Source: Akkermansia muciniphila
Lineage (GTDB): Bacteria > Bacillota > Clostridia > Oscillospirales > CAG-272
Direction of reading: 5' to 3'
DNA: 64,000 bases
Assembly (NCBI GenBank): GCA_963611795.1
Contig: CAVDSZ010000009.1
Location: 11,602-75,601 of the forward strand
The notes beneath the pieces were generated by a model that searched no databases, was not told where the DNA came from, and saw nothing but the letters and a program-made list of their open reading frames with translations. Made by a program: the position numbers and the translations under genes. Positions 5,446-29,650 of this stretch are shown one piece after another. Every line of letters starts with the position of its first letter. The first letter of the stretch is position 1.

Positions 5446-6066
5446 ATGAAAATCAAGAAAATAATTGACCTTTGCAAGAAACGCGGGATTTTCCGCCTTT
5501 ATGCAGGCGAAAGCGTCCAGTGGATTTCCGACGGGTGTGCATTGTACCCGCTGTACAATCTTCCGGAATTTGACAAAGAAACGCTGTACCGCGTATTCGA
5601 CATTACAGAAAAGCAGCAGGACAAGATTTCATTTCGGTATGAACTGCACTTGCCGTCAACAATTTGCAATGACGATTATGTGCAAGGCGAAGCACTGTGC
5701 GAAAAAGGAATGATGGTGATCGGGGCCGGCGGGAAAAACATCATTCCGTTCAAGACTTCACAAGGGGTGCTGTTCATCGACGAAAAATACCTTGCGCCAT
5801 TGGAAGATACACGGGATTATATCGAAGTGTACGAAAGAACCGGAGAGGGCGGCAGAATTTACTTTGCGGTCAAATCGGGATTTATGCTTCTTGCAATTGT
5901 TCTTCCGTATGACGCAATCAACGAACTGTTTGTGAACGGACTGAAAGAATTGTCGCAGCAATGCGAAATAGCGCTGTTCAATAAGCGGACGCAGGAAAAG
6001 CAGGCGGAGCAACAAACAATTTTCGGAACGGGCGAAGAAAAAACACAAACGGAGGAAATCGAATGA
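5446..6066 (+). CDS. Hypothetical phage protein (206 aa)
   Basis: Long ORF with an AGGAGG RBS, packed in the early operon. No motif recognised. Confidence 0.6.
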   Translation: MKIKKIIDLCKKRGIFRLYAGESVQWISDGCALYPLYNLPEFDKETLYRVFDITEKQQDKISFRYELHLPSTICNDDYVQGEALCEKGMMVIGAGGKNIIPFKTSQGVLFIDEKYLAPLEDTRDYIEVYERTGEGGRIYFAVKSGFMLLAIVLPYDAINELFVNGLKELSQQCEIALFNKRTQEKQAEQQTIFGTGEEKTQTEEIE

Positions 6067-17584: not shown

Positions 17585-18309
17585 TCATTGAAGGAATCAA
17601 TCAGTTTTCGTTTGGCGGTCGCCGTTCCTATGACGATATGGGTCTGATTATCACAGAACCCCCGGTTTTCACGTTCCCTGAACGGGATATTTCGTATATC
17701 GGAATTCCCGGAAAAAGCGGCGACCTGATCCGCGACAACGGAAGATACAAGAATATATCCGGAAGTTACAAAGTGGCAGTTGTGCGGGATGAATTCCTGC
17801 TGGAAACCATGATGACGGAAATCAGATCGTGGCTTGCCGGGAATATCGGGTATTCTGTATTGACAGACACCTACGATCCGCTTTATTACCGTATGGCACA
17901 GTTGGACGGGAAATTGAGTTTTACCGAGATTCTGCGGCAGATTGGGACAGGAACGGTGAAATTCAACTGCAAGCCCTACAAATACCGCATAGATGGTCGC
18001 CATGTGATAACGCTTGCGGGGGCCGGCGCAGTTTTCAACCCGGAACACGCCGAAAGCGCCCCGTACATCAAGATAACCGGAAGCGGAAATATCACGCTGA
18101 CAGTCAATCACGCTTCGTTCCCTTTTACGGATATTGACGGATATATTGAAATTGACAGCGACATCATGGCAGTGTACAAAGGAACGCTACTACAAAACGA
18201 AAAAGCTCACTTTACCGAATTTCCGAAATTCGGAGAGGGAGAAAACAACGTCAGCGTTCAAGGAAGCGTTGCCAAAATAGAAATTATTCCGAGGTGGTGC
18301 GCACTATGA
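17581..18309 (+). CDS. Distal tail protein (Dit, siphovirus tail family)
   Basis: 242 aa. The GTGA start overlaps the tape measure stop. Position is canonical, directly after the tape measure. Confidence 0.7.
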   Translation: MIIEGINQFSFGGRRSYDDMGLIITEPPVFTFPERDISYIGIPGKSGDLIRDNGRYKNISGSYKVAVVRDEFLLETMMTEIRSWLAGNIGYSVLTDTYDPLYYRMAQLDGKLSFTEILRQIGTGTVKFNCKPYKYRIDGRHVITLAGAGAVFNPEHAESAPYIKITGSGNITLTVNHASFPFTDIDGYIEIDSDIMAVYKGTLLQNEKAHFTEFPKFGEGENNVSVQGSVAKIEIIPRWCAL

Positions 18310-21300
18310 TTCCGATTTTGTACACGGCAAACGAAACTGATTTTTCGCACTGTGGAATCGGCGCACTTTCGGAAATGACTTCATGTACAGTTACGGAGGA
18401 ACGAAACGGCGCATTTGAATGCGAATTCAAATACCCTGTTGACGGAAAATTGTTCGCTGAAATACAGGAATCCCGTATTGTCAAGGCAAACCCGAACGAA
18501 ATGTCCGATCCACAGTTGTTCAGGATATACGCTTCATCAAAACCGATAAACGGCATTGTGACTTACCGAGCCGAACACATATCCTATGAATTAAGCGGCT
18601 ATCCTGTGGAAAGTGTTTCTGTTGAGAACGCCACGGCGCGCGCCGCCATGAATGCAATCCTGAACGCAACCTTGATTGCACACCGTTATACGGCACAAAG
18701 CGATATTGAATTACTGAAAAGTACAACGATTGACCGCAAATCCGCCCGTGCCGCATTGGGCGGCGTGGAAGGGTCTGTCCTGTCTCTTTGGGGTGGCGAG
18801 TTTGAATTTGATAACTTTACCGTAAAATTGCATAAGGCAAGAGGACGGAAAACCGGAATCAAAATTGCATACGGGAAAAACATTACCGACATCAAGCAGG
18901 AGGCAAGCGTCGCAGGCGTGTACACTGCGGTTTACCCTTATGCAAAATACACCACGCAGCCGACGGATGGACAGACCGAACCGGAGGAAATCACGGTTTC
19001 ACTGCCTGAAAAAATCCTGTATTCACAGAAAGCGTCAAAAGCCGCCGGGGAGCGGGTTTGTATCAAAGATTTTTCCGAGAGTTTCAACGGGGCAACAGAA
19101 ATCACGGTCGAACAGCTTCGCACAAAGGCTCAAAATTGGGTAGAAACAAGCGGCTTTGATGTGCCGTCGGTCAATATTACAGTTTCTTTTGAAAATCTGT
19201 GGCAAAGCCCTGAATACGAACAATACGCACTTTTGGAGCGGTGCGGGCTGTGCGATACGGTTTCCGTGGAATTTCCGGCACTGAATATTTCCACCACGGC
19301 AAAAATCATCAAGACAAAATATGATGTTTTGAGTGAAAAATATCTGCAAATTACGCTTGGCAGCGCGCGGGCGAACTTCGCTGACACAGTGAAAGACACA
19401 TCGGCGGCAATCGAGCAGACAAAGCAGGAAATCAAGCAATCATCCGCCAAAGTGGAAGTCGATTTCAAAAAAGCCATTGACGACGCAACAAAGGCGATCA
19501 CTGGGCAAAGCGGCGGCTATGTGGTTTTGAACCCTGCAAAGAATCCGCAGGAAATCCTGATTATGGATGCGCCGACCATTGCGGCGGCAAAGCGCGTTTG
19601 GCGTTGGAATAGCGGCGGTCTTGGCTATTCCAAAAACGGCTACAACGGGCCGTTTGAAACTGCGATCACACAGGACGGTGCAATTGTTGCTGATTTTATC
19701 ACAGTCGGACAAATTGCAACGGCGCGTCTTGACGTGCAAGACATCATACGGACAGGTGAAATCGCCGTACTTGGTGATGTTACTGTGGAAACGGAACGTG
19801 CCACAAAGGAAGAAGGTGCGCTGTCCTCCCGCATTACGGCAAATGCAACGGGAATCACCGCCGAGGTAAGCCGCGCGACCGACGCGGAAGGTGCGCTGTC
19901 GTCCCGCATTACCGCAAATGCAACGGAAATCACCGCCGAGGTAAACCGCGCAACCGACGCGGAAGGCACGCTGTCATCCCGCATTACTGCCAACGCAACG
20001 GAAATCACCGCCGAGGTAAGCCGTGCGACCGACGCAGAGGGTGCGCTGTCATCCCGCATTACGGCAAACGCAACGGAAATTGCCGCGAAAGTCAGTACGA
20101 CAGGCGGCGCGGCTTCGTCGTTCGCGTGGTCGCTGACCACATCCGGTTTTGTTCTGACATCCAACAATACCGAGGTTATGAAAGTAACTTCAAGCGGATT
20201 GAACATCACGGGGCGTATTACCTCCACGAGCGGAACGATCGGTGGCTGGATAATCTCAAGCACGGAAATATACAAAGGTTCTGTCGGAATCAATGCAAGC
20301 AATGAGCACACCAAAAATTCGCTTGTCACAACAGGCACATCACCCGTCCGCTTTTATGCCGGGAACGGCGACCGGATAAACGGGAAATTTGTTGTACTGG
20401 ATGATGGCTCTTTGTACGCTTCGGCGGCAAAGATTGAGGGAACGATCACGGCAAACAGCGGAAGTTTCAGCAACTGCACGATTGATGAAACCTGCACGAT
20501 CAAAGGGACATTGACGGCGGACACGATTTGCAACAATGACAAATCCATGCAGGCGGAGGGTTCTATAAATTTTGTCGGTTCGGGCAATACATCGTTGGCG
20601 CAGTATAATATGCGGATCGTTGACAAAAACAGTAGCATGATGAGAGCGTCCTGCTCAGTGTCGGATTCTTCCGGGCTTATGTCAGCGGCGCTGACCTGTA
20701 CATATAAATACACCCTTTCTGGAACGACCGCATACGGAACATGCGGGATTTCCGCAACAGGTGAACTTTGTTCCATTACAGGGCATTATATCGGAATTAC
20801 AGCCGACAAGAGCGGATCGGACTATATCAAGCTGGACGCGACCAGTGTTACGGTAACGGGAAGTTCAACATTTACCGGAAGCGCAACATTTCTTCAATCG
20901 AATTCTTCACAAGGGTTCTTTATTCGCCATAATTACACCGTACAACTGCCAGCAGGCGGAGGATATGCGTTTTTGCAGATGTACACCAAAACCAACCTTG
21001 CCGTTTCACATTACATGGATTATGACGCAGGGCGGTATATGGTGTATTCGTGGAACTACACAATCGGTATCGGTTCTTCAAGCGGTTCAAATCAGCTATA
21101 CGGGACGTGGTATTGTAACGGGTCAGTGATAAACAGTTCCGACCGGAACGCAAAAAACAGCATTGCAGACATTGACGAGAAATACGACACGTTGTTCGAC
21201 GGTTTGCGGGCAAGATTGTATAGGTATAACGACGGCACTTCCGGCAGGCTTCACAGCGGATTTGTGGCGCAGGAAGTGGAAGAAGCCATGCAAGCGGCAA

Positions 21301-21485
21301 ATGTCCCGACAAGCGATTTTGCGGCGTTCTGCGTGGATGGCGCAGGGACAGACAAAGAGCGGTGCGGGCTTCGCTACGAAGAATTTGTGTCGTTGAACAC
21401 ATGGCAAATTCAGAAACTGAAAGCACATTTGCGGGAGGTGGAAAACCGCCTTGCAATACTGGAAAAAACAGAAACAGGAGGATGA
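18306..21485 (+). CDS. Tail-associated / tail fibre protein (Tal-like) with a C-terminal S74 intramolecular chaperone auto-processing domain
   Basis: The start was moved to ATG 18306 (MIPILYTANETDFSHCGIG, typical of the phage minor structural / prophage tail endopeptidase N-terminus). The C-terminus SSDRNAKNSIADI...LYRYNDG...HSGFVAQEVEEAM...RYEEFVSLNTWQIQKL matches the Peptidase_S74 chaperone domain (about 21130-21485). Confidence 0.8.
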   Translation: MIPILYTANETDFSHCGIGALSEMTSCTVTEERNGAFECEFKYPVDGKLFAEIQESRIVKANPNEMSDPQLFRIYASSKPINGIVTYRAEHISYELSGYPVESVSVENATARAAMNAILNATLIAHRYTAQSDIELLKSTTIDRKSARAALGGVEGSVLSLWGGEFEFDNFTVKLHKARGRKTGIKIAYGKNITDIKQEASVAGVYTAVYPYAKYTTQPTDGQTEPEEITVSLPEKILYSQKASKAAGERVCIKDFSESFNGATEITVEQLRTKAQNWVETSGFDVPSVNITVSFENLWQSPEYEQYALLERCGLCDTVSVEFPALNISTTAKIIKTKYDVLSEKYLQITLGSARANFADTVKDTSAAIEQTKQEIKQSSAKVEVDFKKAIDDATKAITGQSGGYVVLNPAKNPQEILIMDAPTIAAAKRVWRWNSGGLGYSKNGYNGPFETAITQDGAIVADFITVGQIATARLDVQDIIRTGEIAVLGDVTVETERATKEEGALSSRITANATGITAEVSRATDAEGALSSRITANATEITAEVNRATDAEGTLSSRITANATEITAEVSRATDAEGALSSRITANATEIAAKVSTTGGAASSFAWSLTTSGFVLTSNNTEVMKVTSSGLNITGRITSTSGTIGGWIISSTEIYKGSVGINASNEHTKNSLVTTGTSPVRFYAGNGDRINGKFVVLDDGSLYASAAKIEGTITANSGSFSNCTIDETCTIKGTLTADTICNNDKSMQAEGSINFVGSGNTSLAQYNMRIVDKNSSMMRASCSVSDSSGLMSAALTCTYKYTLSGTTAYGTCGISATGELCSITGHYIGITADKSGSDYIKLDATSVTVTGSSTFTGSATFLQSNSSQGFFIRHNYTVQLPAGGGYAFLQMYTKTNLAVSHYMDYDAGRYMVYSWNYTIGIGSSSGSNQLYGTWYCNGSVINSSDRNAKNSIADIDEKYDTLFDGLRARLYRYNDGTSGRLHSGFVAQEVEEAMQAANVPTSDFAAFCVDGAGTDKERCGLRYEEFVSLNTWQIQKLKAHLREVENRLAILEKTETGG
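19812..20093 (+). repeat. 75-bp (25-aa) near-perfect tandem repeat, about 3.75 copies, in frame within Tal
   Basis: The unit EGALSSRITANATEITAEVSRATDA starts at 19812, 19887, 19962 and 20037. Only a few silent or conservative differences separate the copies. Confidence 0.9.
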
Positions 21486-21489
21486 AGCA

Positions 21490-21726
21490 ATGAACGAAGC
21501 AAAAAAGCCGCTTGTGCTGGAAATCGACGAAGCGGAGAAAGAAACGGTGAAAGCGGTCAATGAGATTATGGCACGTCATAGTCTGCCTTGCAGTTTCTAT
21601 GAACCGATTATTGCGGAGATTCACAGGCAACTGCGAGAGGGCAAGAAAAACGAACTGTCAGCCGCTACCGAACAGTACCGGGCGGAATGCGAACAAGTAC
21701 ACGCCGACGGAAAAACGGAGGAATAA
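21490..21726 (+). CDS. Hypothetical small phage protein (78 aa)
   Basis: ORF 21451..21726. The start was moved to ATG 21490 (MNEAKK) after a GGAGGA RBS. It lies between the Tal and RBP genes. Confidence 0.5.
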   Translation: MNEAKKPLVLEIDEAEKETVKAVNEIMARHSLPCSFYEPIIAEIHRQLREGKKNELSAATEQYRAECEQVHADGKTEE

Positions 21727-21729
21727 TCA

Positions 21730-23988
21730 ATGGAGTACATCAAGGAAATCTGCGCCGATTTTTCAGGCGAGGGACTGTTTGACTATATCACCGCAGTGCA
21801 AGGCGACAGTGCGCGCGGTGTCCGGATCAAAATTATTGCAAACAATCAGCGGTATATCCCTGAATCAGGGGCAAGCGCCGTTCTCCGGGCAAAGAAACCG
21901 GACGGAACATACATTCTGAACGATGGCGCAATCGAGGACGGCGGAACAATAAAGGCAATGTTCAGCGAACAGATGACCGCCGCTGTCGGAAACTGCCGCT
22001 GTGAACTGACGCTTTACGGCGCAAACGGCGGAACGCTTACAACCGTGAAATTCATCCTGAAGGTGTCCCCTGCGTCCCTTGCACCGGACATCGAAAGCAA
22101 AGACGAATTTCAATCGCTGGAAAATGCACTTACCGACGTGAAAAAATCAAGCGGCATTGCGCAGGCGGCGTTGGAAGCAGCAACGGAAGCGCTGGAAAAG
22201 ACGGGAGAAGTGGAGGCAGAAATCGCTTCCCACATTACGGCGGCAGAACAGGCAACCACTGCCGCAAACGCGGCAGCTGCCAATGCCAACGAAAAAGCGT
22301 CTGCCGCCAACACGGCGGCAGGAACTGCCAACACCGCCGCACAAAATGCGAACAAGAAGGCGGCAGCGGCAAACACTGCGGCGAATGCGGCAAATACCGC
22401 AGCGCAGAACGCAGGCGATAAAGCAACCGCCGCCGATACCGCCGCAGGAACGGCGAACACTGCGGCACAAAATGCAAACAGCAAAGCAAGTGCCGCCAAT
22501 ACCGCTGCAACCAGCGCAACGACCGCCGCAGAACGGGCAAACGCCGCAGCGGAGCAGGCGGAGGAAATCGTCAGGACGGCAGAAGGCATTATTACCCGCT
22601 ACGGCGTACACTTCGGCGGAGCGGCAAACACGGGCGAAACCGTTTCCCGCTTGTATAATGCTGTGGGACTTGTGGCAGGCGTGGGAACAGATACAGAAGC
22701 CCCGCAAAACGACTTTGACAACATCTTCCCATGGAATGCGCGCCGCCGCTGTTGCGGTTATTGGGACGAAAACGGAAACTTTGTTGTAAATGCCTACAAG
22801 GGTGAACCGGGCTATGCCGAGGACGGAACAAACGGTGAAGTATGGATAGAACATTCCCTGTTCTATTTCAAACACGAATACGGCGGGACTGATGAAACAA
22901 TCGTCATTTCTGCGACCAAACTTGCGGGATTTGAGCCTGCGCCGATCTTCCAAAAGAACGGCAACAAAGACGCCCCGTATCAAAAGGCATATACCCCGGC
23001 ATTTCCGATGGCAACCGTGGACAACAAACCGACTTCCCGCGCGGGTGTGTTCTCCGGTCTGTATTCGTTGAATTCGGCAATGACAGACGCAAGGAAGGCA
23101 GGCGCAAACTACACGACCACAACCGCCGCAGAGCAATACACGGAATGCCTGTATATGTGGGTGGAATTTGCTACACGCAATTTGCAAAGCGTAATGGTAG
23201 GCGCAACGGGTATGCCGTACACTGACGGCGGCACGGCGACCGTGGCGGAAACGGGCGTAAACCGCATTATTGTTTCAAATGCCGTTGCTGCAAAATATGT
23301 TGTCGGTCAGACAATCGGTATTGGCGCTTCGCTTGGTTCGACTGCGATTGCAAATAACCGCATTGTAACGGCAATCGAGACATACGACGACGCGAACAAA
23401 GCAATTTCTTTTGACGGCGCGGCGGTCAATATTGCCGTCGGCAATATCATTTTCACACTGGCATGGAAAAACGGTTCTTGTGCGTCCGTCATTGCTTCGA
23501 GCGGTTCACCCGTATCAAATACAAGCGGCAAATATAATTGCGTGTACCGTGGGAAAGAAACACCATATGGAAATTCCTTTGAATGGATTTCGGATATTCT
23601 TTTGAAACGAGAGGGAGCGGGGACGGAAGAAAGCCCCTACACCTACACACCGCAGTACCTGCCGGACGCAACAAAATACGCAAACGGTACAATCACGGAA
23701 GATTATGTGCCGATGAACTTCAAACTGCCGACCGCAGACGGATATGTAAAAAGGCTTGGAATTGACAGTCGTTTCCCGTGGGCGCGCCTGCCCTGCGAAA
23801 CCGGGGCCGGCTCTACCACGTATTACAGCGACTATTACTATTTTCCGCGCTATGCGACGTGCGCGGCGCGTGTCGGCGGCTACTGGTACACCGGGTCGCC
23901 CGCTGGCCCGTGCTACTGGTGCTGCGACACCGCCCCTTCGGGCACGAGTGTGGACTTTCGTGCGCGCCTTTCTTACCACCGGAATTAA
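21730..23988 (+). CDS. Receptor-binding / tail fibre protein with a BppU-like N-terminus and a C-terminal DGR variable region (DGR target protein)
   Basis: The N-terminus MEYIKEICADFSGEGLFDYITAVQGDSARGVRIKI resembles the baseplate upper protein (BppU) N-domain. An Ala/Asn-rich heptad stalk follows. The last ~40 aa (VGGYWYTGSPAGPCYWCCDTAPSGTSVDFRARL) are the VR copy of the downstream template repeat and are typical of C-type-lectin-fold DGR targets. Confidence 0.85.
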   Translation: MEYIKEICADFSGEGLFDYITAVQGDSARGVRIKIIANNQRYIPESGASAVLRAKKPDGTYILNDGAIEDGGTIKAMFSEQMTAAVGNCRCELTLYGANGGTLTTVKFILKVSPASLAPDIESKDEFQSLENALTDVKKSSGIAQAALEAATEALEKTGEVEAEIASHITAAEQATTAANAAAANANEKASAANTAAGTANTAAQNANKKAAAANTAANAANTAAQNAGDKATAADTAAGTANTAAQNANSKASAANTAATSATTAAERANAAAEQAEEIVRTAEGIITRYGVHFGGAANTGETVSRLYNAVGLVAGVGTDTEAPQNDFDNIFPWNARRRCCGYWDENGNFVVNAYKGEPGYAEDGTNGEVWIEHSLFYFKHEYGGTDETIVISATKLAGFEPAPIFQKNGNKDAPYQKAYTPAFPMATVDNKPTSRAGVFSGLYSLNSAMTDARKAGANYTTTTAAEQYTECLYMWVEFATRNLQSVMVGATGMPYTDGGTATVAETGVNRIIVSNAVAAKYVVGQTIGIGASLGSTAIANNRIVTAIETYDDANKAISFDGAAVNIAVGNIIFTLAWKNGSCASVIASSGSPVSNTSGKYNCVYRGKETPYGNSFEWISDILLKREGAGTEESPYTYTPQYLPDATKYANGTITEDYVPMNFKLPTADGYVKRLGIDSRFPWARLPCETGAGSTTYYSDYYYFPRYATCAARVGGYWYTGSPAGPCYWCCDTAPSGTSVDFRARLSYHRN
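22237..22566 (+). repeat. Ala/Asn/Thr-rich heptad repeats (xANTAAx) encoding a predicted coiled-coil stalk in the RBP
   Basis: AANTAAG TANTAAQ NANKKAA AANTAAN AANTAAQ NAGDKAT AADTAAG TANTAAQ NANSKAS AANTAAT has 7-residue periodicity. The low-complexity GC-rich DNA produces several long spurious ORFs on other frames and on the opposite strand. Confidence 0.8.
23858..23975 (+). repeat. DGR variable repeat (VR), at the 3' end of the RBP gene
   Basis: A gap-free 118-bp alignment to 24037-24154 has 105 identities and 13 mismatches. Every mismatch lies opposite an adenine in the TR copy. Confidence 0.92.
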
Positions 23989-23996
23989 CGGGGGTT

Positions 23997-24015
23997 TGGG
24001 GGCGGTCAGCCCCCA
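23997..24015 (+). promoter_or_regulatory. GC-rich hairpin 3' of VR (candidate DGR target-recognition hairpin/cruciform)
   Basis: TGGGGGC (23997-24003), loop GGTCA, GCCCCCA (24009-24015): a perfect 7-bp stem. It lies 22 nt after the end of VR/TR homology. No U-run follows, so it is not a canonical terminator. Confidence 0.6.
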
Positions 24016-24036
24016 TTGCATAGGGATATAATGTGC

Positions 24037-24154
24037 CGTGCGCGGCGCGTGTCGGCGGCAACTGGAACAACGGGTCGAACGCTGGCCCGTGCTACTGGAA
24101 CTGCAACAACGCCCCTTCGGACACGAGTGTGAACTATCGTGCGCGCCATTCTTA
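24037..24154 (+). repeat. DGR template repeat (TR)
   Basis: Non-coding copy of VR. It contains 23 adenines including 8 AAC codons in the VR reading frame. The apparent ORF 24033..24272 is simply this repeat read in frame. Confidence 0.92.
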
Positions 24155-24288
24155 TAGCAACACAACCAAAACGGGAAAACCTTTGCACATTATATTCCTT
24201 GCCGCTTGGCAAAAATTGTTGCTACGGCGGGGTTTAGTAAGCGTTCGTCGCCCAACGACCCCGAAACTATAAGAAAGGAACTGTAAAA

Positions 24289-25551
24289 ATGAAATCTTTT
24301 CATATAGACCGTAATATGAAAGACAAGGTTAAAATACGCCTTGCAATCGAAAAAGTATGTAAAAGCAAAAAGAAGCGAAACGGACGACCGACGAAGAAAT
24401 ACCGTCAGGCGCAGAAAATTCTTGCAAATATTGACCGCTACACGGATTTGATTCATACGATTGTCTGCGAAACCGAGGAAAAAGAACGGGCAATCAAAAG
24501 CGGGACATACCGTGACGGTGATTTTCCGAATGCTTTTGTTCCACACATTTCCGGTTCATTTACCCGCAAGTGTGAAAACGGGAAGGTTCGCGTCATTACA
24601 AGCGTCCCGGTCTTTCCGGATCAGATCATTCACCAGCTTGTCATCAAGTCTGCGGAAAGCGTTTTTATGCGCGGGATGTACCGCTTTTCCTGCGGGTCAA
24701 TTCCAAAGCGAGGGGTTCACAAGGGAAAGCAATACTTGGAACGCTATATCGGCAGAAACAGGCGCAGCAGTGCAATCAAATATGCGGCGCAGTTAGACAT
24801 CCGGAAATGCTATCCGCATATACGGCACGATGTTTTGAAGGAAATGTTGCGTCGAAAATTCCGTGGCAGTCTGTTCCTTTGCTTCTGCTTCTCTATTATC
24901 GACAGTTGCAGCGAAAAGGACGCACCCGGCGTTGGGCTTCCAATCGGCTTCTATACTTCGCAGTGGTTTTGCAATTTTCTTCTGACACCGCTTGATACAT
25001 ATATCAAGCAGGAATTAAAGGTCAAATGTCATGTGCGGTATGTGGATGACATGACGATGTTTTCCAACAACAAGAAGAAACTTCATCGGATTGTTGATTG
25101 TATTATAGAAAAAGCCGCTTCCATGGGGCTTCAAATCAAAGACAACTGGCAAGTGTTCCGGTTCGATCACATTGTGGGATTCCGGGTAAACCCAAAGACG
25201 GGAAAGCAAGAAGAAATCCACAAAGGGCGTGCAATCGACACTTTGGGATTCCGGTTCTTCCGGAACAAAACGATATTGAGAAAGAGGAATGCGCTTTCCA
25301 TTCGTCGCTGTGCGGCACGTCTTGCCAAAGCAAAGAGAATCACGCCACACCGGGCGCGTTCGTTCATGTCAAAAATCGGAGCATTGAAGCACTGCAATTC
25401 CCGGAACTTTTGGCGGAAATACGTCAAGCCGCTTGTAAAAATCAAAAAGTTAAAGGAGATCATCAGAAATGAGGACAGAAAGCAACATCAAACCCGAAGT
25501 GCTGGCGGTGGAAGAATGCGCACAGGGGCTTGCAGAAATTGTTTTGCGTGA
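24289..25551 (+). CDS. DGR-type reverse transcriptase
   Basis: QLDIRKCYPHIRHD (Asp-containing motif A-like), LPIGFYTSQWFCNF (the [I/L/V]GxxxSQ motif characteristic of DGR RTs, nt 24943-24963) and RYVDDMTMF (YxDD catalytic motif, nt 25039-25050). It lies 134 nt downstream of TR. Confidence 0.9.
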   Translation: MKSFHIDRNMKDKVKIRLAIEKVCKSKKKRNGRPTKKYRQAQKILANIDRYTDLIHTIVCETEEKERAIKSGTYRDGDFPNAFVPHISGSFTRKCENGKVRVITSVPVFPDQIIHQLVIKSAESVFMRGMYRFSCGSIPKRGVHKGKQYLERYIGRNRRSSAIKYAAQLDIRKCYPHIRHDVLKEMLRRKFRGSLFLCFCFSIIDSCSEKDAPGVGLPIGFYTSQWFCNFLLTPLDTYIKQELKVKCHVRYVDDMTMFSNNKKKLHRIVDCIIEKAASMGLQIKDNWQVFRFDHIVGFRVNPKTGKQEEIHKGRAIDTLGFRFFRNKTILRKRNALSIRRCAARLAKAKRITPHRARSFMSKIGALKHCNSRNFWRKYVKPLVKIKKLKEIIRNEDRKQHQTRSAGGGRMRTGACRNCFA

Positions 25552-25951
25552 GAATATCACGGAAACACAAAAAGAGGAAGAAACAGTCTATTTGTACGAC
25601 GAATACAGACTGACCGTTCCGACACGTGAAAATCTTGCAAGCGCTGTAAAACAGAATCTTGCCGCTTGGCTGGCACGGGCAAAGGACAGTGAAAAAAGCC
25701 GCCTTGCGGCGGCGATCCGCGAAAAGCGGGACAAACTCTTGAAAGACAGTGACGCAAGAATGTGCCTTGACCGCATGGGCCTTTCTGCACCGAGCGGAAC
25801 GGGCTTCACGGCGTGGCTGGACTTTCTGAAAACGCTTGCAAAAGAGGTCAGCGGCGAATGGGCGAAATATCGGAAAGCGCTGCGCGATCTTCCTGAACAG
25901 CCGGGATTCCCGTACGATGTCACATTTCCAACGCCGCCGGAGGACGAATAA
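25469..25951 (+). CDS. Tail fibre assembly / chaperone-like protein
   Basis: The C-terminal EWAKYRKALRDLPEQPGFPYDVTFPTPPE matches the conserved end of Caudovirales tail-fibre assembly proteins. An AAGGAG RBS lies 8 nt upstream. It overlaps the RT 3' end by 83 nt. Confidence 0.55.
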   Translation: MRTESNIKPEVLAVEECAQGLAEIVLRENITETQKEEETVYLYDEYRLTVPTRENLASAVKQNLAAWLARAKDSEKSRLAAAIREKRDKLLKDSDARMCLDRMGLSAPSGTGFTAWLDFLKTLAKEVSGEWAKYRKALRDLPEQPGFPYDVTFPTPPEDE

Positions 25952-26269
25952 ATGATGATTCAAATTTTCCTCCAATGGTTGATACCGTTTGCCTGCGGCG
26001 CTTTGGTATCGGTTTGCACCGCCCTTTTCACCATGCGCAGGAAAGAGCGGAAGCGCGAAAAAGCCGTTGAAAACGGTGTGCAGTGCCTGCTACGTGCGGA
26101 GATTATACGGCAATATGAAAAATGGGTTGATCGCGGATATTGCCCGATATATGCGGAAGAAGCGTTGCGGATTGGTTATGCCGCATATCATGAATTGGGC
26201 GGGAACGATGTTGCGACGGAACTTTACAAAAAGGTCATGGCACTGCCGACCGATGAAAAAACGAAATAA
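25952..26269 (+). CDS. Membrane-anchored protein in the lysis module (one N-terminal TM), function unknown
   Basis: 105 aa. The hydrophobic N-terminus is IFLQWLIPFACGALVSVCTALF, followed by a basic stretch. It is adjacent to the holin. Confidence 0.5.
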   Translation: MMIQIFLQWLIPFACGALVSVCTALFTMRRKERKREKAVENGVQCLLRAEIIRQYEKWVDRGYCPIYAEEALRIGYAAYHELGGNDVATELYKKVMALPTDEKTK

Positions 26270-26317
26270 TATTCCTGCAGGATATTATGATAAAAAACAA
26301 AGAGAGGTACAAACAAA

Positions 26318-26704
26318 ATGGTAAACTATGCAATTATCCCGGTGATTGTCGTTATCTGCTATGTAGTGATTTCGGCAATTAAGACAACCAACATCAAAAG
26401 CAAGTGGTTTCCGCTGATCTCATGCGCACTTGGCGCGGTGCTTGCGGTTGCCATGTTTTACATTGTCCCGGATTTTGTCGGCGCTGCAACGCTTACAGCG
26501 GCGATCATTTCGGGTGCGGTGTCAGGGCTTGCGGCGACCGGAACCAATCAGATTTTCAAACAGTTGATGAAAGCGGCGGAGAGCGGCGAGGACATCACGA
26601 AAATTGAATTGCCCGGCTTTTCCGAATCCGGAGAGGGGCAGAAAGAGCGCACCCCCGTACATAACGGAGAAAACGCTGGCAACGATACCGGGACGGAAAC
26701 GTAA
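26318..26704 (+). CDS. Putative holin (three hydrophobic segments)
   Basis: 128 aa. The TM-like segments are AIIPVIVVICYVVISAI, FPLISCALGAVLAVAMFYIV and AATLTAAIISGAVSGLAATG, followed by a charged C-terminal tail. It is the last gene of the late operon. Confidence 0.6.
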   Translation: MVNYAIIPVIVVICYVVISAIKTTNIKSKWFPLISCALGAVLAVAMFYIVPDFVGAATLTAAIISGAVSGLAATGTNQIFKQLMKAAESGEDITKIELPGFSESGEGQKERTPVHNGENAGNDTGTET

Positions 26705-26714
26705 TAAACAAAAA

Positions 26715-26745
26715 ACAGCGGAGGCGTATAGCTTCCGCTGTTTTT
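26715..26745. terminator. Bidirectional rho-independent terminator
   Basis: An 11-bp stem ACAGCGGAGGC/GCTTCCGCTGT (one G-U pair) is flanked by an A-run upstream and TTTTT downstream. It lies between the convergent holin and HIRAN genes. Confidence 0.8.
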
Positions 26746-26746
26746 A

Positions 26747-27313
26747 TCATGCTTTATTCAGGCATAAAGTGACTTCACACCCGAAGTTCAGCGGCTGACC
26801 GTTGTCATCTGTACCGCCGCCGTAAATATCGGTGTGGTAAACGCTTCTGATTCTGTCCCAATTGTTGAGGACGAACGCAAGCTGTTCTTTCGGAACATTC
26901 CCCACTTGCTCGCCGTTTGCATATACACCAACGGCGGGTTCGCCGTTATAATCGTATTTTTCAATTGTCCATTCCACAAAATCAAACGGTTCATCGCCCC
27001 ACTTGATTTTCCGAAGGATTGCCTGCCGTGTCTTGCGTCCGTTGTTGAATGTCACCCCCGCAAGCCGGAATTTGAAATAATCGTTGTTTTGCTTTGCCGC
27101 TTCCGCTTTTTTATGAATATCGGCTGACTTTTCAGCGATCACGACGGGCTTTCTTCCGAGGAACAGAAGAATACCGCCGACGGCAATCAATGCGACACTA
27201 CCGAACGCAAGTGCGGCTTTGTCATTTGTATCAGATAACAGCCCAAAAAGCCCGATTACACCGACTATGCACAGAATCAGACCGATAATAAATTTTTTGC
27301 TTTTCTTTTTCAT
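26747..27313 (-). CDS. Membrane-anchored HIRAN-domain protein (two N-terminal TMs)
   Basis: ORF 26747..27355. The start was moved to ATG at 27313 (MKKKSKKF) after a GGGGG RBS. The TMs are FIIGLILCIVGVIGLFGLL and LAFGSVALIAVGGILLFLG. FKFRLAGVTFNNGRKTRQAIL...EPAVGVYANGEQVGNVPKEQLAFVL matches the HIRAN pattern. Confidence 0.7.
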   Translation of the reverse strand: MKKKSKKFIIGLILCIVGVIGLFGLLSDTNDKAALAFGSVALIAVGGILLFLGRKPVVIAEKSADIHKKAEAAKQNNDYFKFRLAGVTFNNGRKTRQAILRKIKWGDEPFDFVEWTIEKYDYNGEPAVGVYANGEQVGNVPKEQLAFVLNNWDRIRSVYHTDIYGGGTDDNGQPLNFGCEVTLCLNKA

Positions 27314-27364
27314 AATACCCCCGAAATTGAAAACAATTCTGTAGTTTATTCGCATTTCTTATCA

Positions 27365-27424
27365 TTAACACAATTATAGACCGAAAGTGTGTTAAAGTCA
27401 AGAGTGATTCCGAACTTTAACACA
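27365..27424. promoter_or_regulatory. Three operator-like half-sites TTAACACA / TGTGTTAA / TTAACACA in the divergent HIRAN-XRE intergenic region
   Basis: TTAACACA at 27365-27372, its inverted copy TGTGTTAA at 27388-27395, and TTAACACA at 27417-27424. Confidence 0.55.
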
Positions 27425-27460
27425 AAATTTCCAAAATCCGATGGAGGAATACATAGAAAA

Positions 27461-27706
27461 ATGAAAATTTACGACTGGAACGGCAAGAAGAATATTTGCG
27501 GCGACCGCGTGCATGAAGCACGGCAACGGTTACGGATGACACAATCCGACTTGGCGGCACAGCTACAAGTTGCAGGAATCATCATGGAACGTGACAGCGT
27601 GAGCCGAATTGAAATCGGAACGCGCTTTGTTGCCGACTATGAATTGTTGATACTTGCAAAATGTCTGAAAGTTTCCCCTGCGTGGCTCTTGGGGATAGAA
27701 CCATAA
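27461..27706 (+). CDS. XRE-family (Cro/CI-type) HTH transcriptional regulator
   Basis: ORF 27389..27706. The start was moved to ATG 27461 after a GGAGGA RBS. RLRMTQSDLAAQLQVAGIIMERDSVSRIEIGTRFV is a classic HTH_3 pattern. Confidence 0.85.
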   Translation: MKIYDWNGKKNICGDRVHEARQRLRMTQSDLAAQLQVAGIIMERDSVSRIEIGTRFVADYELLILAKCLKVSPAWLLGIEP

Positions 27707-27714
27707 AAGCAAAA

Positions 27715-27744
27715 CCGCCGGACACTTCCGGCGGAATTTTTTTA
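27715..27744 (+). terminator. Rho-independent terminator
   Basis: CCGCCGGA (27715-27722), loop CACT, TCCGGCGG (27727-27734), followed by AATTTTTTT. Confidence 0.85.
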
Positions 27745-27773
27745 AAAAATTAAAATTATTTTTGCAAAACCTC

Positions 27774-27802
27774 TTGACATACTATCAATAGTATGTTATA
27801 AT
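27774..27802 (+). promoter_or_regulatory. Perfect consensus sigma-A promoter TTGACA-17 nt-TATAAT with a TGn extended -10
   Basis: TTGACA at 27774-27779, a 17-nt spacer ending in TGT, TATAAT at 27797-27802. An RBS-preceded ATG follows 24 nt downstream. Confidence 0.75.
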
Positions 27803-27825
27803 ATATACAGAAAGGGGGTGAGGAA

Positions 27826-27978
27826 ATGAGAGAAACGAAAGCGCCGATTGGCGAAATAGAAAAAGCCTTGCAGGAAGTGGCAAAAGTGGTTGAATGCAAT
27901 GATTCCGTCGAAAGTATCAAAATTACATTAACCATTAAGAAACCAAAACCAAACAAGGCAACCACCGAAAGCAAGTAA
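27826..27978 (+). CDS. Small ORF, 50 aa (below the ORF-track cutoff), unknown function
   Basis: Hand-translated as MRETKAPIGEIEKALQEVAKVVECNDSVESIKITLTIKKPKPNKATTESK. An AGGGGGTGAGG RBS is present, and the consensus promoter lies directly upstream. The minus-strand ORF 27756..27974 in the track is probably its shadow. Confidence 0.5.
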   Translation: MRETKAPIGEIEKALQEVAKVVECNDSVESIKITLTIKKPKPNKATTESK

Positions 27979-28108
27979 CGCTTTCAATGGCAGGGACGGG
28001 GCGAAAGCCCCTCCCGTAAGACCATTATATCACATTTGCTTGCAGAAGTCAAGCGGGCAGTCGAAAATAGCCGAGCGGACGGCATATTTCCGCAGAATGG
28101 AGGGAAAA

Positions 28109-28276
28109 ATGATTGTTGAAAAGAGCGGCAAACAGTATGAAGTAGCAGAACGAAAAAGGCATTGGTCGGTTGTTTTGAAATCCGGTTCGCTGACAGTAGA
28201 TTTTCAGGTGTCAAAAGACATTTGCGCCACGATCGAAGAATTAAAGGAATACATTCAAAAAGAAGATATGTTTTAA
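28109..28276 (+). CDS. Small ORF, 55 aa, unknown function
   Basis: ORF 28040..28276. The start was moved to ATG 28109 (MIVEKSGKQYEV) after a GGAGGGA RBS. Confidence 0.45.
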   Translation: MIVEKSGKQYEVAERKRHWSVVLKSGSLTVDFQVSKDICATIEELKEYIQKEDMF

Positions 28277-28286
28277 GGATTACAAA

Positions 28287-28478
28287 ATGGAAACGGAGAA
28301 AAGGAAAACGAGGACTTCTGCGGCGGTAAAAGCGCGGTATAACAAAAAAACATACGGGGCCATTACTGCTTATGTACCGAAAGAACTTGCCGCAGCATTC
28401 AAAGAAAAGTGCGCCGCCGAAGGAGTGCCGCAGGCGCAAATCATAAAAAAAGCGATCGAAGATTTTTTGAACAGCTAA
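28287..28478 (+). CDS. Ribbon-helix-helix (Arc/CopG-like) DNA-binding protein
   Basis: 63 aa. ...KARYNKKTYGAITAYVPKELAAAFKEKCAAEGVPQAQIIKKAIEDFL has the beta-strand/helix/helix layout of RHH proteins. It is followed by a hairpin plus T-run (about 28483-28517). Confidence 0.6.
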   Translation: METEKRKTRTSAAVKARYNKKTYGAITAYVPKELAAAFKEKCAAEGVPQAQIIKKAIEDFLNS

Positions 28479-28479
28479 A

Positions 28480-29650
28480 TTCAAGCCCGTTTCTTTGTAG
28501 GAAGCGGGCTTTTCTTTTGCGGAGGGAATCATGCGCAGATTCAAACAATTGACAAAAACCGACCGATTGAGAATAGAAGCCTTTTTGCGGTGCGGTCTGA
28601 CGGCAAAAGAAATTGCCGTCAAAATCGGTGTACATATCAGCACGATTTACAGAGAAGTAAAGCGCGGACAATATGAACATCTGAATTCGGACTGGACGCG
28701 GGAATGGAGATACAGCCCGGATATTGCGGAGGAAAAATATCAACAGAATCTGCGTGCGAAAGGGCCGGCACTGAAAATCGGCAATGACCGCAAGTTGGCG
28801 GAGCATATCGAAAAGAAGATCATTCATGATAAATATTCCCCTGCCGCTGTCCTCGGAGAAATCAGGCGGGACAACATAGAATTCACGGTTACAATCAGTA
28901 TTCCCACTTTATATAGTTACATAGACAAAGGGATTTTTCTGCATCTGACAAATAAAAATTTGCCGGACAAATGCCGGAAAAAGAGAAAGTACAGAAAAAC
29001 AAAAGTTAAACGCCCGCCGCGCGGCGAAAGTATCGAGAACCGCCCTCCCGAAGTAGATACACGGGAAACCTTTGGATTTTGGGAAATGGACACCGTAAAA
29101 GGCAAAAAGAAAAAGAGTAAAAACAATATGCTTGTGCTGACGGAGCGGAAAACACGGCAAGAAATACAAATTAAAATACCGGACGGCACTATGGCAAGCG
29201 TCGTCCGGGCATTGGATATGCTGGAACGGAAATACGGCGACTTGTTCCCGCTGATTTTCAAGTCAATAACGGTTGATAACGGGTCGGAATTCTATGACGA
29301 AGCGGGCATGACACGATCCTGCTTACGAGAGGGAGCGCGGACAAAGTTTTATTTTTGCCATCCGTATTCCTCCTATGAGAGAGGAAGTAACGAAAAGCAA
29401 AACCGCATGATCCGCCGTTTTATACCGAAAGGAACAGACTTTGACGACATGACCGACGACAAAGTGGAGGAAATTACTGCATGGCTAAACAATTACCCGC
29501 GCGGAATTTTTAACTATTACACATCACAATATTTCTTTGACAAAGAAATTCAAGCGATTTTAACCAGTTCACAAAATATTAACAAATAAAATTCGCATTT
29601 ATCTCTTGACAAGAGCGAAATTTTTCTTTTTTCGGGCAGTCGGGTGATTT
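28480..29650 (+). mobile_element. IS30-family insertion sequence (ends not resolved)
   Basis: A single IS30-type transposase gene, noticeably AT-rich compared with its flanks. The terminal inverted repeats could not be identified confidently by eye. Confidence 0.6.
28531..29589 (+). CDS. IS30-family transposase (DDE)
   Basis: N-terminal HTH (LTKTDRLRIEAFLRCGLTAKEIAVKIGVHISTIYREVKRG). The catalytic core has FWEMDTV (D), ITVDNGSEF (D) and ERGSNEKQNRMIRRFIPKG (E), typical of IS30. Confidence 0.9.
   Translation: MRRFKQLTKTDRLRIEAFLRCGLTAKEIAVKIGVHISTIYREVKRGQYEHLNSDWTREWRYSPDIAEEKYQQNLRAKGPALKIGNDRKLAEHIEKKIIHDKYSPAAVLGEIRRDNIEFTVTISIPTLYSYIDKGIFLHLTNKNLPDKCRKKRKYRKTKVKRPPRGESIENRPPEVDTRETFGFWEMDTVKGKKKKSKNNMLVLTERKTRQEIQIKIPDGTMASVVRALDMLERKYGDLFPLIFKSITVDNGSEFYDEAGMTRSCLREGARTKFYFCHPYSSYERGSNEKQNRMIRRFIPKGTDFDDMTDDKVEEITAWLNNYPRGIFNYYTSQYFFDKEIQAILTSSQNINK

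Follow-up and report, generated by a model that had tools for sequence, protein, structure and literature searches.

A DGR with an RT-18 spacer RNA in a Clostridiales prophage of the siphovirus type

Introduction

To our knowledge, prokaryotes and the viruses that infect them have no natural machinery of targeted protein hypermutation other than diversity-generating retroelements (DGRs). The Avd protein accompanies about 74% of them and is, therefore, not universal. In the prototype Bordetella element, BPP-1, the order is mtd-avd-TR-brt, with the variable repeat (VR) at the C-terminus of the phage receptor-binding protein and the template repeat (TR) followed by the reverse transcriptase (RT) gene on the same strand. 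A template:primer duplex is formed in its RNA by the 3' end of TR and the spacer; it ends at the priming adenosine and is located 5' of the strand of a stop duplex, in a nested arrangement (bioRxiv 10.1101/2023.10.23.563531). This stop duplex joins a sequence upstream of TR to one downstream of it and is accompanied by a stem-loop and A-minor adenosines (Handa et al., bioRxiv 10.1101/2023.10.23.563531). In the collection of 372 curated DGRs analyzed by Wu et al. (2018, NAR 46:11, PMC5758913), 29% were assigned to Architecture A. The same survey distinguished one RT lineage without avd ("Lineage 3") and is silent on the structure of spacer RNA (PMC5758913). As for the structured motif RT-18, in the paper that reported its discovery only RT-10 was tied to a DGR, and the presence of other RT motifs in DGRs was a matter of speculation (Weinberg et al. 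2017, PMC5737381). A cultured example from phages of Firmicutes is given by Faecalibacterium phage FP_Lagaffe (MG711461).

Here we describe a locus found in a 64-kb stretch of DNA, which is called the window throughout; positions are counted from its first letter and all features listed below belong to the plus strand. It is carried by a prophage of the siphovirus type in a Clostridiales bacterium, which makes the host different from that of BPP-1, and like FP_Lagaffe it represents phages of gut Clostridia with an Mtd-like target. DGR parts follow each other on one strand in the expected order: target gene with VR, TR, RT-18 spacer and RT.

Results

VR (23858..23975) and TR (24037..24154) are aligned without gaps along 118 nt at a fixed offset of 179 nt. 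The earlier note, made by eye, had claimed a gap-free 118-bp alignment with 13 mismatches confined to template adenines, and computational re-alignment bore this out exactly. All 13 mismatches (VR positions 23881, 23887, 23891, 23899, 23900, 23920, 23921, 23926, 23930, 23942, 23953, 23957 and 23969) have A in TR, while indels or mismatches at other TR bases are absent from the alignment of the window repeats. Given the base content of TR (23 A, 37 C, 37 G and 21 T), the probability of such coincidence by chance, which the note had left to be calculated, is 1.6e-11 (hypergeometric, C(23,13)/C(118,13)). Substitutions from TR to VR are distributed as A>T (5), A>C (4) and A>G (4). They change 11 codons, eight of which are AAC in TR, as the note had counted, and these eight are all AAC codons that TR has. 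In the frame of VR all 23 adenines of TR occupy codon positions 1 and 2 and none occupies position 3. The repeat finder could extend the pair by 6 nt in the 5' direction (23852/24031) with two non-A mismatches, which mark the edge of homology and do not conflict with the adenine specificity. No second VR/TR pair was found in the 64-kb window. Adenine-only mismatches and an AAC-rich TR are shared with BPP-1, and the window TR agrees with the one annotated in that element at 76.5% of nucleotides; with TR of FP_Lagaffe the similarity is 78% over 75 nt. A gap of only 61 nt separates the end of VR from TR, which does not code for protein; this short distance is a difference from BPP-1.

The comparison with related genomes, also suggested in the earlier note, involved five public loci, L004–L008, which are 95.5–98% identical to the window. 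Their TRs are identical to each other and differ from the window TR only at position 24120, while VR is hypervariable: six near-identical prophage copies contain five distinct alleles (that of the window and four further). Thus, 23 columns are polymorphic in VR and only one in TR. Adenines of the window TR correspond to 21 of these 23 columns; one more, 23941, falls where TRs of the relatives have A, and a single column (23870, G/T) is polymorphic at a non-adenine site. The TR base specific for the window, G24120, is matched by G23941 in VR, while the relatives have A at both positions. This base was transferred from TR to VR, hence at least one homing event took place after the window TR had diverged from the otherwise identical TRs. 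Since the alleles differ almost only at the sites of TR adenines and this G is mirrored in VR, the data indicate retrohoming, presumably RT-dependent and adenine-mutagenic, since these lineages split, as far as it can be judged from sequences. The mutagenic homing that the note had assumed for this lineage thus gained support from independent population data of five close relatives. In L004 and L007 VR has also lost 3 nt opposite an AAC codon; indels opposite AAC have been illustrated for DGRs (Wu et al. 2018, PMC5758913). In proteins P0001–P0003 variation was registered only at AAC-encoded positions.

The same pattern recurs in diverged loci having the gene order of the window: all 11 VR/TR mismatches are at A in L001, and 17 are at A with one non-A in L003. 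RTs of relatives with conserved target-TR-RT synteny are 52–58% identical to the window RT. In L002 no VR/TR pair was found; it has one VR/TR hybrid fused to the spacer, which is either a collapsed cassette or an assembly collapse. Scanning of viral contigs with the VR/TR pattern gave no match, and scanning of genome contigs with only two weak N-terminal RT patterns gave just two loci.

The target gene (21730..23988) is an ORF for a 752-aa tail receptor-binding protein assigned to PHROG tail protein families. As in BPP-1, its C-terminal end contains VR, which encodes the last ~43 residues with the diversified span at 23881–23969. The N-terminus has a baseplate-attachment domain BppU_N (aa 19–138, Pfam 4.3e-11) and is followed by an Ala-rich stalk with 21-nt periodicity (22226–22551) and a C-terminal variable-protein domain of ~450 aa (22627–23985). 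Unlike the target of BPP-1, the protein has BppU_N and lacks the Pfam domains Mtd_N and mtd_2nd. BppU_N is typical of siphophages of Gram-positive bacteria. The baseplate of FP_Lagaffe is, in contrast, P2-like, and its target matches Pfam FGE-sulfatase, which the window target does not. No Pfam family was obtained for the C-terminal domain in any of 53 homologues, and phmmer search of the target against PDB gave no match. Modelling with AF2 from a wrong domain boundary, which took in just the final 273 residues, gave a low pLDDT of 70 (under 50 in VR) and no significant Foldseek match; with the start at aa 300 the model of residues 300–752 reached pLDDT 93.6. Its best PDB match in Foldseek is the DGR variable protein of Thermus aquaticus (TaqVP, 5vf4; E 2e-8, prob 1.00), followed, weakly, by Mtd. 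Global TM to TaqVP is only 0.40–0.46. Among the BFVD matches tail collar fibre proteins of gut phages stand out (TMq 0.85–0.87), and tail fibres of crAss-like phages as well as proteins labelled FGE-like and TvpA-like are also present. Thus, TaqVP and the BFVD tail collar fibre proteins are the best structural matches to the modelled C-terminal half, with sequence identity to the target of 11–24%; the target differs from them by an extra beta-rich insertion and by the long N-terminal half composed of BppU_N and stalk. A profile search also gave a weak match to 5vf4 (E 0.012), which includes the VR segment. Based on the predicted structure, the CLec (C-type-lectin, FGE-like) variable-protein fold is supported for the C-terminal half.

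The 3' end of VR (23959..23985) contains the GC-rich block CGTGCGCGCC, then TTTCTTA and then VR-specific sequence. The block is invariant among relatives, TTTCTTA that follows it is common to VR and TR up to 23975, and the repeats diverge at 23975/24154. Nine nt after the stop codon of the target there is a GC-rich inverted repeat (23997..24015) with a 7-bp stem TGGGGGC/GCCCCCA and a 5-nt loop. L001 and L003 keep it in the corresponding position, with the loop-closing pair C:G replaced by T:A in a compensatory manner. This hairpin is present after VR and absent after TR; no U-tract follows it and a terminator was not called there. Both the GC-rich repeat end and a GC hairpin restricted to the VR side are features of BPP-1. 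The likeness to IMH proposed in the earlier note for the 3' segment is plausible, a GC-rich block and a conserved hairpin downstream of VR being present; their participation in homing is suggested only by analogy: the block would function like that of BPP-1 (PMC5758913), and the hairpin is probably the counterpart of its homing-promoting hairpin/cruciform.

The RT gene (24289..25551) starts 134 nt after TR and encodes an intact protein of 420 aa (328 aa in BPP-1), recognized by Pfam RVT_1 (5e-16) and PHROG 1423 (4e-72). Its best PDB relative is the Bordetella bRT 8ub7 (1.4e-12; 2e-15 with the profile), which is ahead of retron and group II RTs. The motif LPIGFYTSQW, i.e. IGxxxSQ corresponding to the DGR signature [I/L/V]GxxxSQ, and the catalytic YVDD are conserved. 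The ORF is also intact in L004 and L008, with ratios of synonymous to nonsynonymous differences from the window of 11:5 and 24:11, and by these counts RT is under purifying selection. In NCBIfam the RTs of Drt3a, group II introns and retrons were matched weakly and below threshold, with 56 bits where the cut-offs are 200–300, and the exact-protein look-up of RT yielded no record.

Unlike BPP-1, the cassette has no avd gene: among ORFs of at least 60 aa within 21451–28478, RT included, there was no match to Avd with Pfam bAvd, NCBIfam or PHROG, while Pfam bAvd detects the Avd proteins of both BPP-1 and FP_Lagaffe. In the latter phage, unlike the window, the Avd-like protein (Pfam bAvd 1.3e-13) is encoded between target and TR. 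Tblastn with these two proteins gave no match either, but this search is uninformative, since they do not find each other. The element is thus of Architecture A of Wu et al. (A1, target-TR-RT without an accessory gene), with the target immediately upstream of the TR-RT core. The 3' end of RT is overlapped by a gene for a protein like tail-fibre assembly chaperones (25469..25951; Pfam Phage_tail_APC 3e-13, PHROG tail fibre assembly), the start codon of which is uncertain. The same ORF follows RT in L003, and an ORF of similar size is found there in L001 and L002. We consider this gene a syntenic neighbour, which does not imply its membership in the DGR. In FP_Lagaffe, like in the window, RT is followed by lysis genes.

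The spacer between TR and RT contains the RNA motif RT-18 (Rfam RF03021; 24200..24276), for which cmscan gave 52.5 bits (gathering score 41.3) over the full length of the model (positions 1–84). It was found at the same place in L001–L004 with 47.3–56.2 bits, above the gathering threshold in every case, and its internal stems covary. No other Rfam family was registered at the locus. Structured RNA between TR and RT is again a feature of BPP-1, which has been reported, however, with RT-10 (PMC5737381). Here RT-18 is located precisely between a verified TR and its RT.

Two long-range helices connect this spacer with TR and its flank. The 5' flank of TR (24019..24036) contains the motif CATAGGGAT (24019–24027), which is conserved between the window and both L001 and L003. 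It also includes ATATAATGTGC (24026–24036), immediately upstream of TR, which serves as the 5' strand of helix H_a. The complementary strand of H_a is GCACATTATAT (24185..24195). All 11 pairs of this helix are kept in three lineages (100% paired), with compensatory changes at 6 pairs. Helix H_b is formed by the 3' end of TR, TTCTTATAG (24149..24157), and by CTATAAGAA (24267–24275) from the single-stranded 3' tail of RT-18, which runs into the Shine-Dalgarno sequence of RT. It has 9 pairs, is A/U-rich, with 94% of cells paired and only two compensatory pairs (4 sequences), and ends in adenosines followed by G. The Rfam model does not include these interactions, in which the unpaired tail of RT-18 contacts the 3' end of TR and the sequence just 5' of the motif contacts the 5' flank of TR. 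In BPP-1, too, one helix joins the 3' end of TR to the spacer and another joins the upstream flank of TR to the spacer (bioRxiv 10.1101/2023.10.23.563531). H_a appears analogous to its upstream:downstream "cPRT Stop" duplex, and for H_b we propose a correspondence to the TR:Sp duplex of template and primer, in which TTCTTATAG would be the template strand. The topology is nevertheless different: helices of BPP-1 are nested, whereas H_a and H_b are crossed as in a pseudoknot, with the spacer strand of H_b being 3' of that of H_a. Inspection of the linker 24158–24184 by eye revealed no conserved complementarity for a primer-type duplex in the nested position known for BPP-1. Scanning of the region 23700–24400 for promoters and terminators gave neither a plus-strand promoter nor a terminator. 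The hexamer TATAAT at 24028–24033 was not called a promoter because it belongs to H_a and lacks conservation in both L001 and L003.

At the prophage edge there is an IS30 copy with its transposase. The window prophage has no endolysin beside the holin, unlike L001 and L003, and together with IS30 at the edge this means that it may be defective. The match of L004 to the window stops at 29626. The arrangement from holin to IS30 is common to L004 and L008, although their VR alleles are different.

Discussion

There is very little doubt that the repeat pair represents VR and TR of a DGR in a Clostridiales siphovirus-type prophage. In the scheme that best accounts for the data, RNA running from the short 5' flank through TR and the 134-nt RT-18 spacer would be bound by RT encoded just downstream. 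RT would copy TR into cDNA from a point near A24148, probably being primed in cis from the adenosine at the end of H_b, if the parallel with BPP-1 holds, and would misincorporate at template adenines. The resulting cDNA would replace VR in the 3' end of the gene for the receptor-binding protein, being targeted by the common GC-rich IMH-like end and by the GC hairpin unique to the VR side. Since adenines of TR are in codon positions 1 and 2 and eight of its codons are AAC, each round might change up to ~14 residues of the ligand-binding face without introducing a stop codon. The changed face presumably alters the choice of the host surface receptor that the phage can bind.

An ordinary segmental duplication, where adenine-only differences appeared by chance, by strand-biased mutation such as deamination or by recombination of alleles, would explain the bare existence of a direct repeat and nothing more. 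The chance probability of 1.6e-11, the constancy of one copy with hypervariability of the other among relatives and the substitution spectrum effectively refute it; deamination does not fit, since A is changed to T, C and G about equally. RT of the DGR type and a DGR-associated RNA directly adjoin the repeats, and the pattern is found again in diverged L001 and L003, so that we give this explanation almost no credence. Hardly any greater chance remains for RT having come from another system (a retron, an Abi/DRT defence RT or a group II intron) to stand beside the repeat by coincidence. The weak NCBIfam similarities that could suggest it are all far under the curated cut-offs, while the Bordetella DGR RT is the best solved relative both by single sequence and by profile, and the DGR-specific SQ motif is present. 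Neither maturase nor intron RNA was found, with RT-18 being the only Rfam result, and target-TR-RT synteny is kept in relatives with RTs as distant as 52–58% identity.

More attention deserves the idea that VR was diversified in the past but the DGR is now inert in this genome, leaving VR as a frozen allele, either because the prophage is defective or because some unlinked required factor is absent. The lack of endolysin after the holin in comparison with L001 and L003, IS30 transposase at the prophage edge, the end of the L004 match at 29626 and the absence of Avd can all be interpreted in this way. We nevertheless find it improbable. RT remains intact with its YVDD and shows a synonymous excess in comparison with L004 and L008; neither TR and RT-18 nor the hairpin and the IMH-like block are disrupted, and G24120 specific for the window TR has already been copied into VR. 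Moreover, L004 and L008 have the same holin-to-IS30 layout and yet differ in VR alleles. We therefore consider the locus a clear and, judging by sequence variation, recently active example of the well-known DGR system in a Clostridiales prophage.

How such an element may operate without Avd can be approached only tentatively. One possibility, which we rate well below the identification of the DGR itself, is that in the RT-18-associated lineage reverse transcription, cis-primed and adenine-mutagenic, proceeds without any Avd-like protein, and that the RT-18 fold with a pseudoknotted pair of long-range duplexes positions template and primer, a task of Avd and the nested duplexes in the Bordetella phage. 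H_a may then enclose TR, and H_b may join the 3' end of TR to the tail of RT-18 beside the ribosome-binding site of RT. As a variant, the small tail-fibre-chaperone ORF overlapping the 3' end of RT may be the missing accessory factor.

In gut and anaerobic communities it is common to find DGRs on phages, where they retarget receptor-binding proteins, so that one further example leaves this picture unchanged. The locus is, however, an unusually clean natural experiment: TR stays constant across six near-identical copies that have five VR alleles between them, and a point change of TR is mirrored in VR. It also connects RT-18, an orphan motif of Rfam, with a verified DGR, in exactly the position that the essential spacer RNA occupies in the Bordetella element. 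We know of no study of the mechanism in the Avd-less class of DGRs, and the covarying helices offer concrete, mutable predictions for priming and termination without Avd. A compact two-part system of RT and RNA would also appeal for engineered targeted diversification.

Adenine-specific differences between the two repeats

Computational alignment of the variable repeat (VR, 23858-23975, plus strand), which lies at the 3' end of the target ORF 21730-23988, with the template repeat (TR, 24037-24154, plus strand) turned out to be gapless with a constant offset of 179 nt. It confirmed the claim of the earlier note, made from the sequence alone, that this 118-bp pair has 13 mismatches, all of them at template adenines. 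The bases found at these positions in the VR were T (5), C (4) and G (4), and with 23 adenines per 118 nt of TR the probability that 13 of 13 mismatches fall on adenines, which the note proposed to calculate, is p = 1.6e-11. In the frame of the target ORF every one of the 23 adenines occupies codon position 1 or 2. The differences alter 11 codons, and the eight of them that read AAC are all the AAC codons of the template, so that on recount the figures previously given by hand (13 of 23 adenines changed, 8 of 11 codons AAC) were all correct. The repeat finder added six bases to the 5' end of the pair, including two non-A mismatches; this extension is the edge of homology. No third copy of the repeat was found in the 64-kb window. 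The 79-aa GTG-start ORF 24033-24272 was rejected as a gene: it consists of the TR and spacer read in the VR frame, has no family match, overlaps the RT-18 RNA and is a by-product of the TR copying a coding sequence.

Variation among related loci

Genome and metagenome scans provided five close relatives (L004-L008), 95.5-98% identical to the window across 3-10 kb; L004 belongs to a MAG labelled 'Clostridiales bacterium UBA7573'. All five TRs are mutually identical and differ from the window TR only at 24120 (G in the window, A in relatives), while their VRs represent four further alleles, one common to L004 and L007. This shared allele lacks one codon opposite an AAC, and such indels were illustrated by Wu et al. 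(PMC5758913). Comparison with relatives, also suggested in the earlier note, thus revealed a hypervariable VR against a near-constant TR: across the six sequences 23 columns are polymorphic in the VR and one in the TR. As many as 21 of these 23 VR columns coincide with adenines of the window TR, another (23941) is located where other TRs have A, and only 23870 (G/T) is non-adenine. The window VR carries G at 23941, as does its own TR at 24120, while relatives have A in both copies, which is a signature of TR-to-VR information flow after the TR mutation arose. Together with the adenine-site alleles of the relatives, this mirrored base supports the proposal of mutagenic homing in this lineage and shows both its direction and recent activity. 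The same substitution takes one mutable adenine (AAC to GAC) out of the template of the window strain. The G/T polymorphism at 23870, the only non-adenine one among relatives, was registered in the 5' part of the VR in L006 and L008, where the TR has G; it is consistent either with cDNA replacement whose 5' boundary varies or with occasional errors at bases other than A.

In the protein clusters P0001-P0003 (91-93% identity), too, the variable residues are the ones encoded by these AAC codons. Two more distant loci, L001 and L003 (RT 57-58% identical), share the order of BppU_N target, VR, TR, RT, chaperone-like ORF, holin and endolysin, and their VR/TR mismatches fall on A in 11 of 11 cases in L001 and in 17 cases, plus one non-A, in L003. 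In another locus, L002, a single VR/TR hybrid was observed (5740-6000), with a diversified 5' part fused directly to the TR 3' flank, RT-18 and RT; protein P0035 is a chimera resembling it. Both may be due either to VR-TR recombination deleting the intervening DNA or to assembly collapse across the repeat.

Prophage context and the target protein

The first ~29.6 kb of the window are a siphovirus-type prophage with GC of ~0.49 versus ~0.56 in the flanking chromosome. In map order its genes are a replication initiator (starting at 1726), DNA methyltransferase (2592), large terminase (7638), portal (9303), major head protein (11114), tape measure (14807), Dit (17581), Tal with endopeptidase (18294), the 752-aa ORF carrying the VR (21730) and, beyond the TR (24037), the 420-aa reverse transcriptase (24289), a tail-fibre assembly chaperone-like ORF (25469), a small PHROG-4105 protein (25952) and holin (26318-26704). 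Within the Tal gene (18294-21485) there is a 75-bp tandem repeat (19812-20080, 3.6 copies, 89% matches). By BLAST coordinates this region is 75 nt shorter in L005 and longer in L004, and its copy number therefore varies among near-identical prophages. For L003, belonging to a contig of Clostridiales bacterium GWF2_38_85, a tmRNA gene (8498-8844, minus strand) was found ~2.3 kb downstream of the lysis genes, suggesting integration of that prophage next to ssrA.

At its N-terminus the VR-bearing protein has a BppU_N domain, a baseplate-attachment module in receptor-binding proteins of Gram-positive siphophages. Between it and the variable domain there is a stalk with a run of 21-nt-periodic, alanine-rich repeats (22226-22551; heptad-like, AANTAAG-type). 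The C-terminal half has more than 170 homologues and matches no Pfam family. Its model, built from residue 300 with 53 homologues (pLDDT 93.6), showed the best solved match to the Thermus aquaticus DGR variable protein 5VF4 (E 2e-8, probability 1.00, TM 0.40-0.46), followed by Bordetella Mtd variants with weak E-values. The viral structure library returned gut-phage 'tail collar fibre' proteins and crAss-like tail fibres (TMq up to 0.87), as well as entries labelled FGE-like and Treponema variable protein.

Reverse transcriptase and the lack of Avd

The reverse transcriptase matches Pfam RVT_1 and PHROG 1423 (4e-72) and contains the DGR motif-4 signature LPIGFYTSQW and catalytic YVDD. It is full-length in L004 and L008, with synonymous to nonsynonymous changes of 11:5 and 24:11, respectively. 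The TR found the annotated 'template repeat' of Bordetella phage BPP-1 (76.5% identity) and the DGR region of Faecalibacterium phage Lagaffe in a nucleotide search. The VR-TR gap is just 61 nt, and neither the RT nor any ORF of at least 60 aa in 21451-28478 matched Pfam bAvd, NCBIfam or Avd-PHROG models of the accessory protein, while the Pfam bAvd model detected both positive controls, the Avd proteins of BPP-1 and Lagaffe. No Avd was found in L001 and L003 either. Architecture A of Wu et al., to which the window element corresponds, is the layout of 29% of the curated DGRs, among them an RT lineage without avd (PMC5758913); the missing Avd is therefore a variation already known and does not count against DGR membership.

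RNA structures around the template

A GC-rich block, CGTGCGCGCC, and then T/ATTCTTA close the repeats, which diverge past 23975/24154. Nine bases beyond the target stop codon there is a 7-bp GC hairpin (23997-24015). L001 and L003 have it at the same site, where its loop-closing pair has changed in a compensatory manner. It lacks a U-tract and was not called as a terminator. In type and place it resembles the homing-promoting inverted repeat of BPP-1 (PMC5758913).

In the 134-nt TR-RT spacer, the Rfam RT-18 RNA (24200-24276) reached 52.5 bits, above its gathering score of 41.3; it occupies the equivalent place in L001-L004, and its fold is evident from covarying stems. Weinberg et al. tied only RT-10, from the BPP-1 spacer, to a DGR and speculated on such a role for other RT motifs (PMC5737381); the window locus shows this link for RT-18. 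Helix H_a pairs the 11 nt directly 5' of the TR (24026-24036) with 24185-24195, directly 5' of RT-18. Across three lineages its sequences are entirely different, while 11 of 11 pairs are kept, six with changes on both sides, which demonstrates this helix. The motif CATAGGGAT (24019-24027), directly 5' of H_a and overlapping it, is retained in the window, L001 and L003 though the adjoining helix sequence wholly differs; it may bind a protein or mark where a transcript starts or is processed. A second, putative long-range helix, H_b, joins the TR 3' end (24149-24157) to the single-stranded RT-18 tail (24267-24275) by nine pairs, two of them compensatory.

In the Bordetella ribonucleoprotein, a TR:Sp duplex presents the priming adenosine and an upstream:Sp duplex serves as 'cPRT Stop', and similar upstream and downstream duplexes were predicted in 207 DGRs (bioRxiv 10.1101/2023.10.23.563531). 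H_a fits the latter and H_b may fit the former, but in the window they cross, unlike the BPP-1 duplexes. From H_b, initiation would be expected at A24148; no TR adenine further 3' differs in the VR. By analogy, an RNA that begins at 24019 or further upstream and reaches the RT start would be produced, probably by read-through from the target gene, since the 5' strand of H_a has to be part of the transcript and there is no terminator in between. In this RNA, which would be bound by RT, the TR may form a loop between H_a and H_b; cDNA would be cis-primed from an adenosine at the end of H_b, predicted to be one of A24273-A24276, and halt at H_a. Replacement of the VR by this cDNA, presumably guided by the GC-rich end and hairpin, would give a receptor-binding surface with up to ~14 randomised residues.

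Alternative explanations and significance

Chance or biased mutation as the source of adenine-only differences is effectively excluded by the probability of this pattern, by the spread of VR bases over T, C and G, and by the disproportion in polymorphic columns between VR and TR. The enzyme could also have come from an unrelated RT system; this is effectively excluded too, as its best solved relative is Bordetella bRT (8ub7; 1.4e-12 with a single sequence, 2e-15 with a three-sequence profile), ahead of retron, group II and DRT enzymes, and NCBIfam matches to Drt3a, group II and retron models are far below cut-offs. Rather improbable is that the element is frozen and now inactive in the window genome. 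This idea is favored by the end of the prophage, which abuts an IS30 copy and has no endolysin next to holin, where L001 and L003 have one. Its place (26704-29626) is taken by a minus-strand 202-aa ORF without matches, an Xre-like regulator (27389), an RHH protein (28287) and an IS30-family transposase (28531-29589). The match of L004 to the window ends at 29626, and the genes from holin to IS30 are arranged alike in L008. This end may have undergone rearrangement, or the prophage as a whole may be defective. However, every component of the DGR is intact, and the VR carries a copy of the G specific to the window TR.

This locus of a Clostridiales prophage is a true DGR with recent activity, and it belongs to the target-TR-RT type that has no Avd. 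Tens of thousands of DGR copies have been described, and the remaining interest of this one lies in the assignment of RT-18 and in the testable RNA architecture of an Avd-less DGR.
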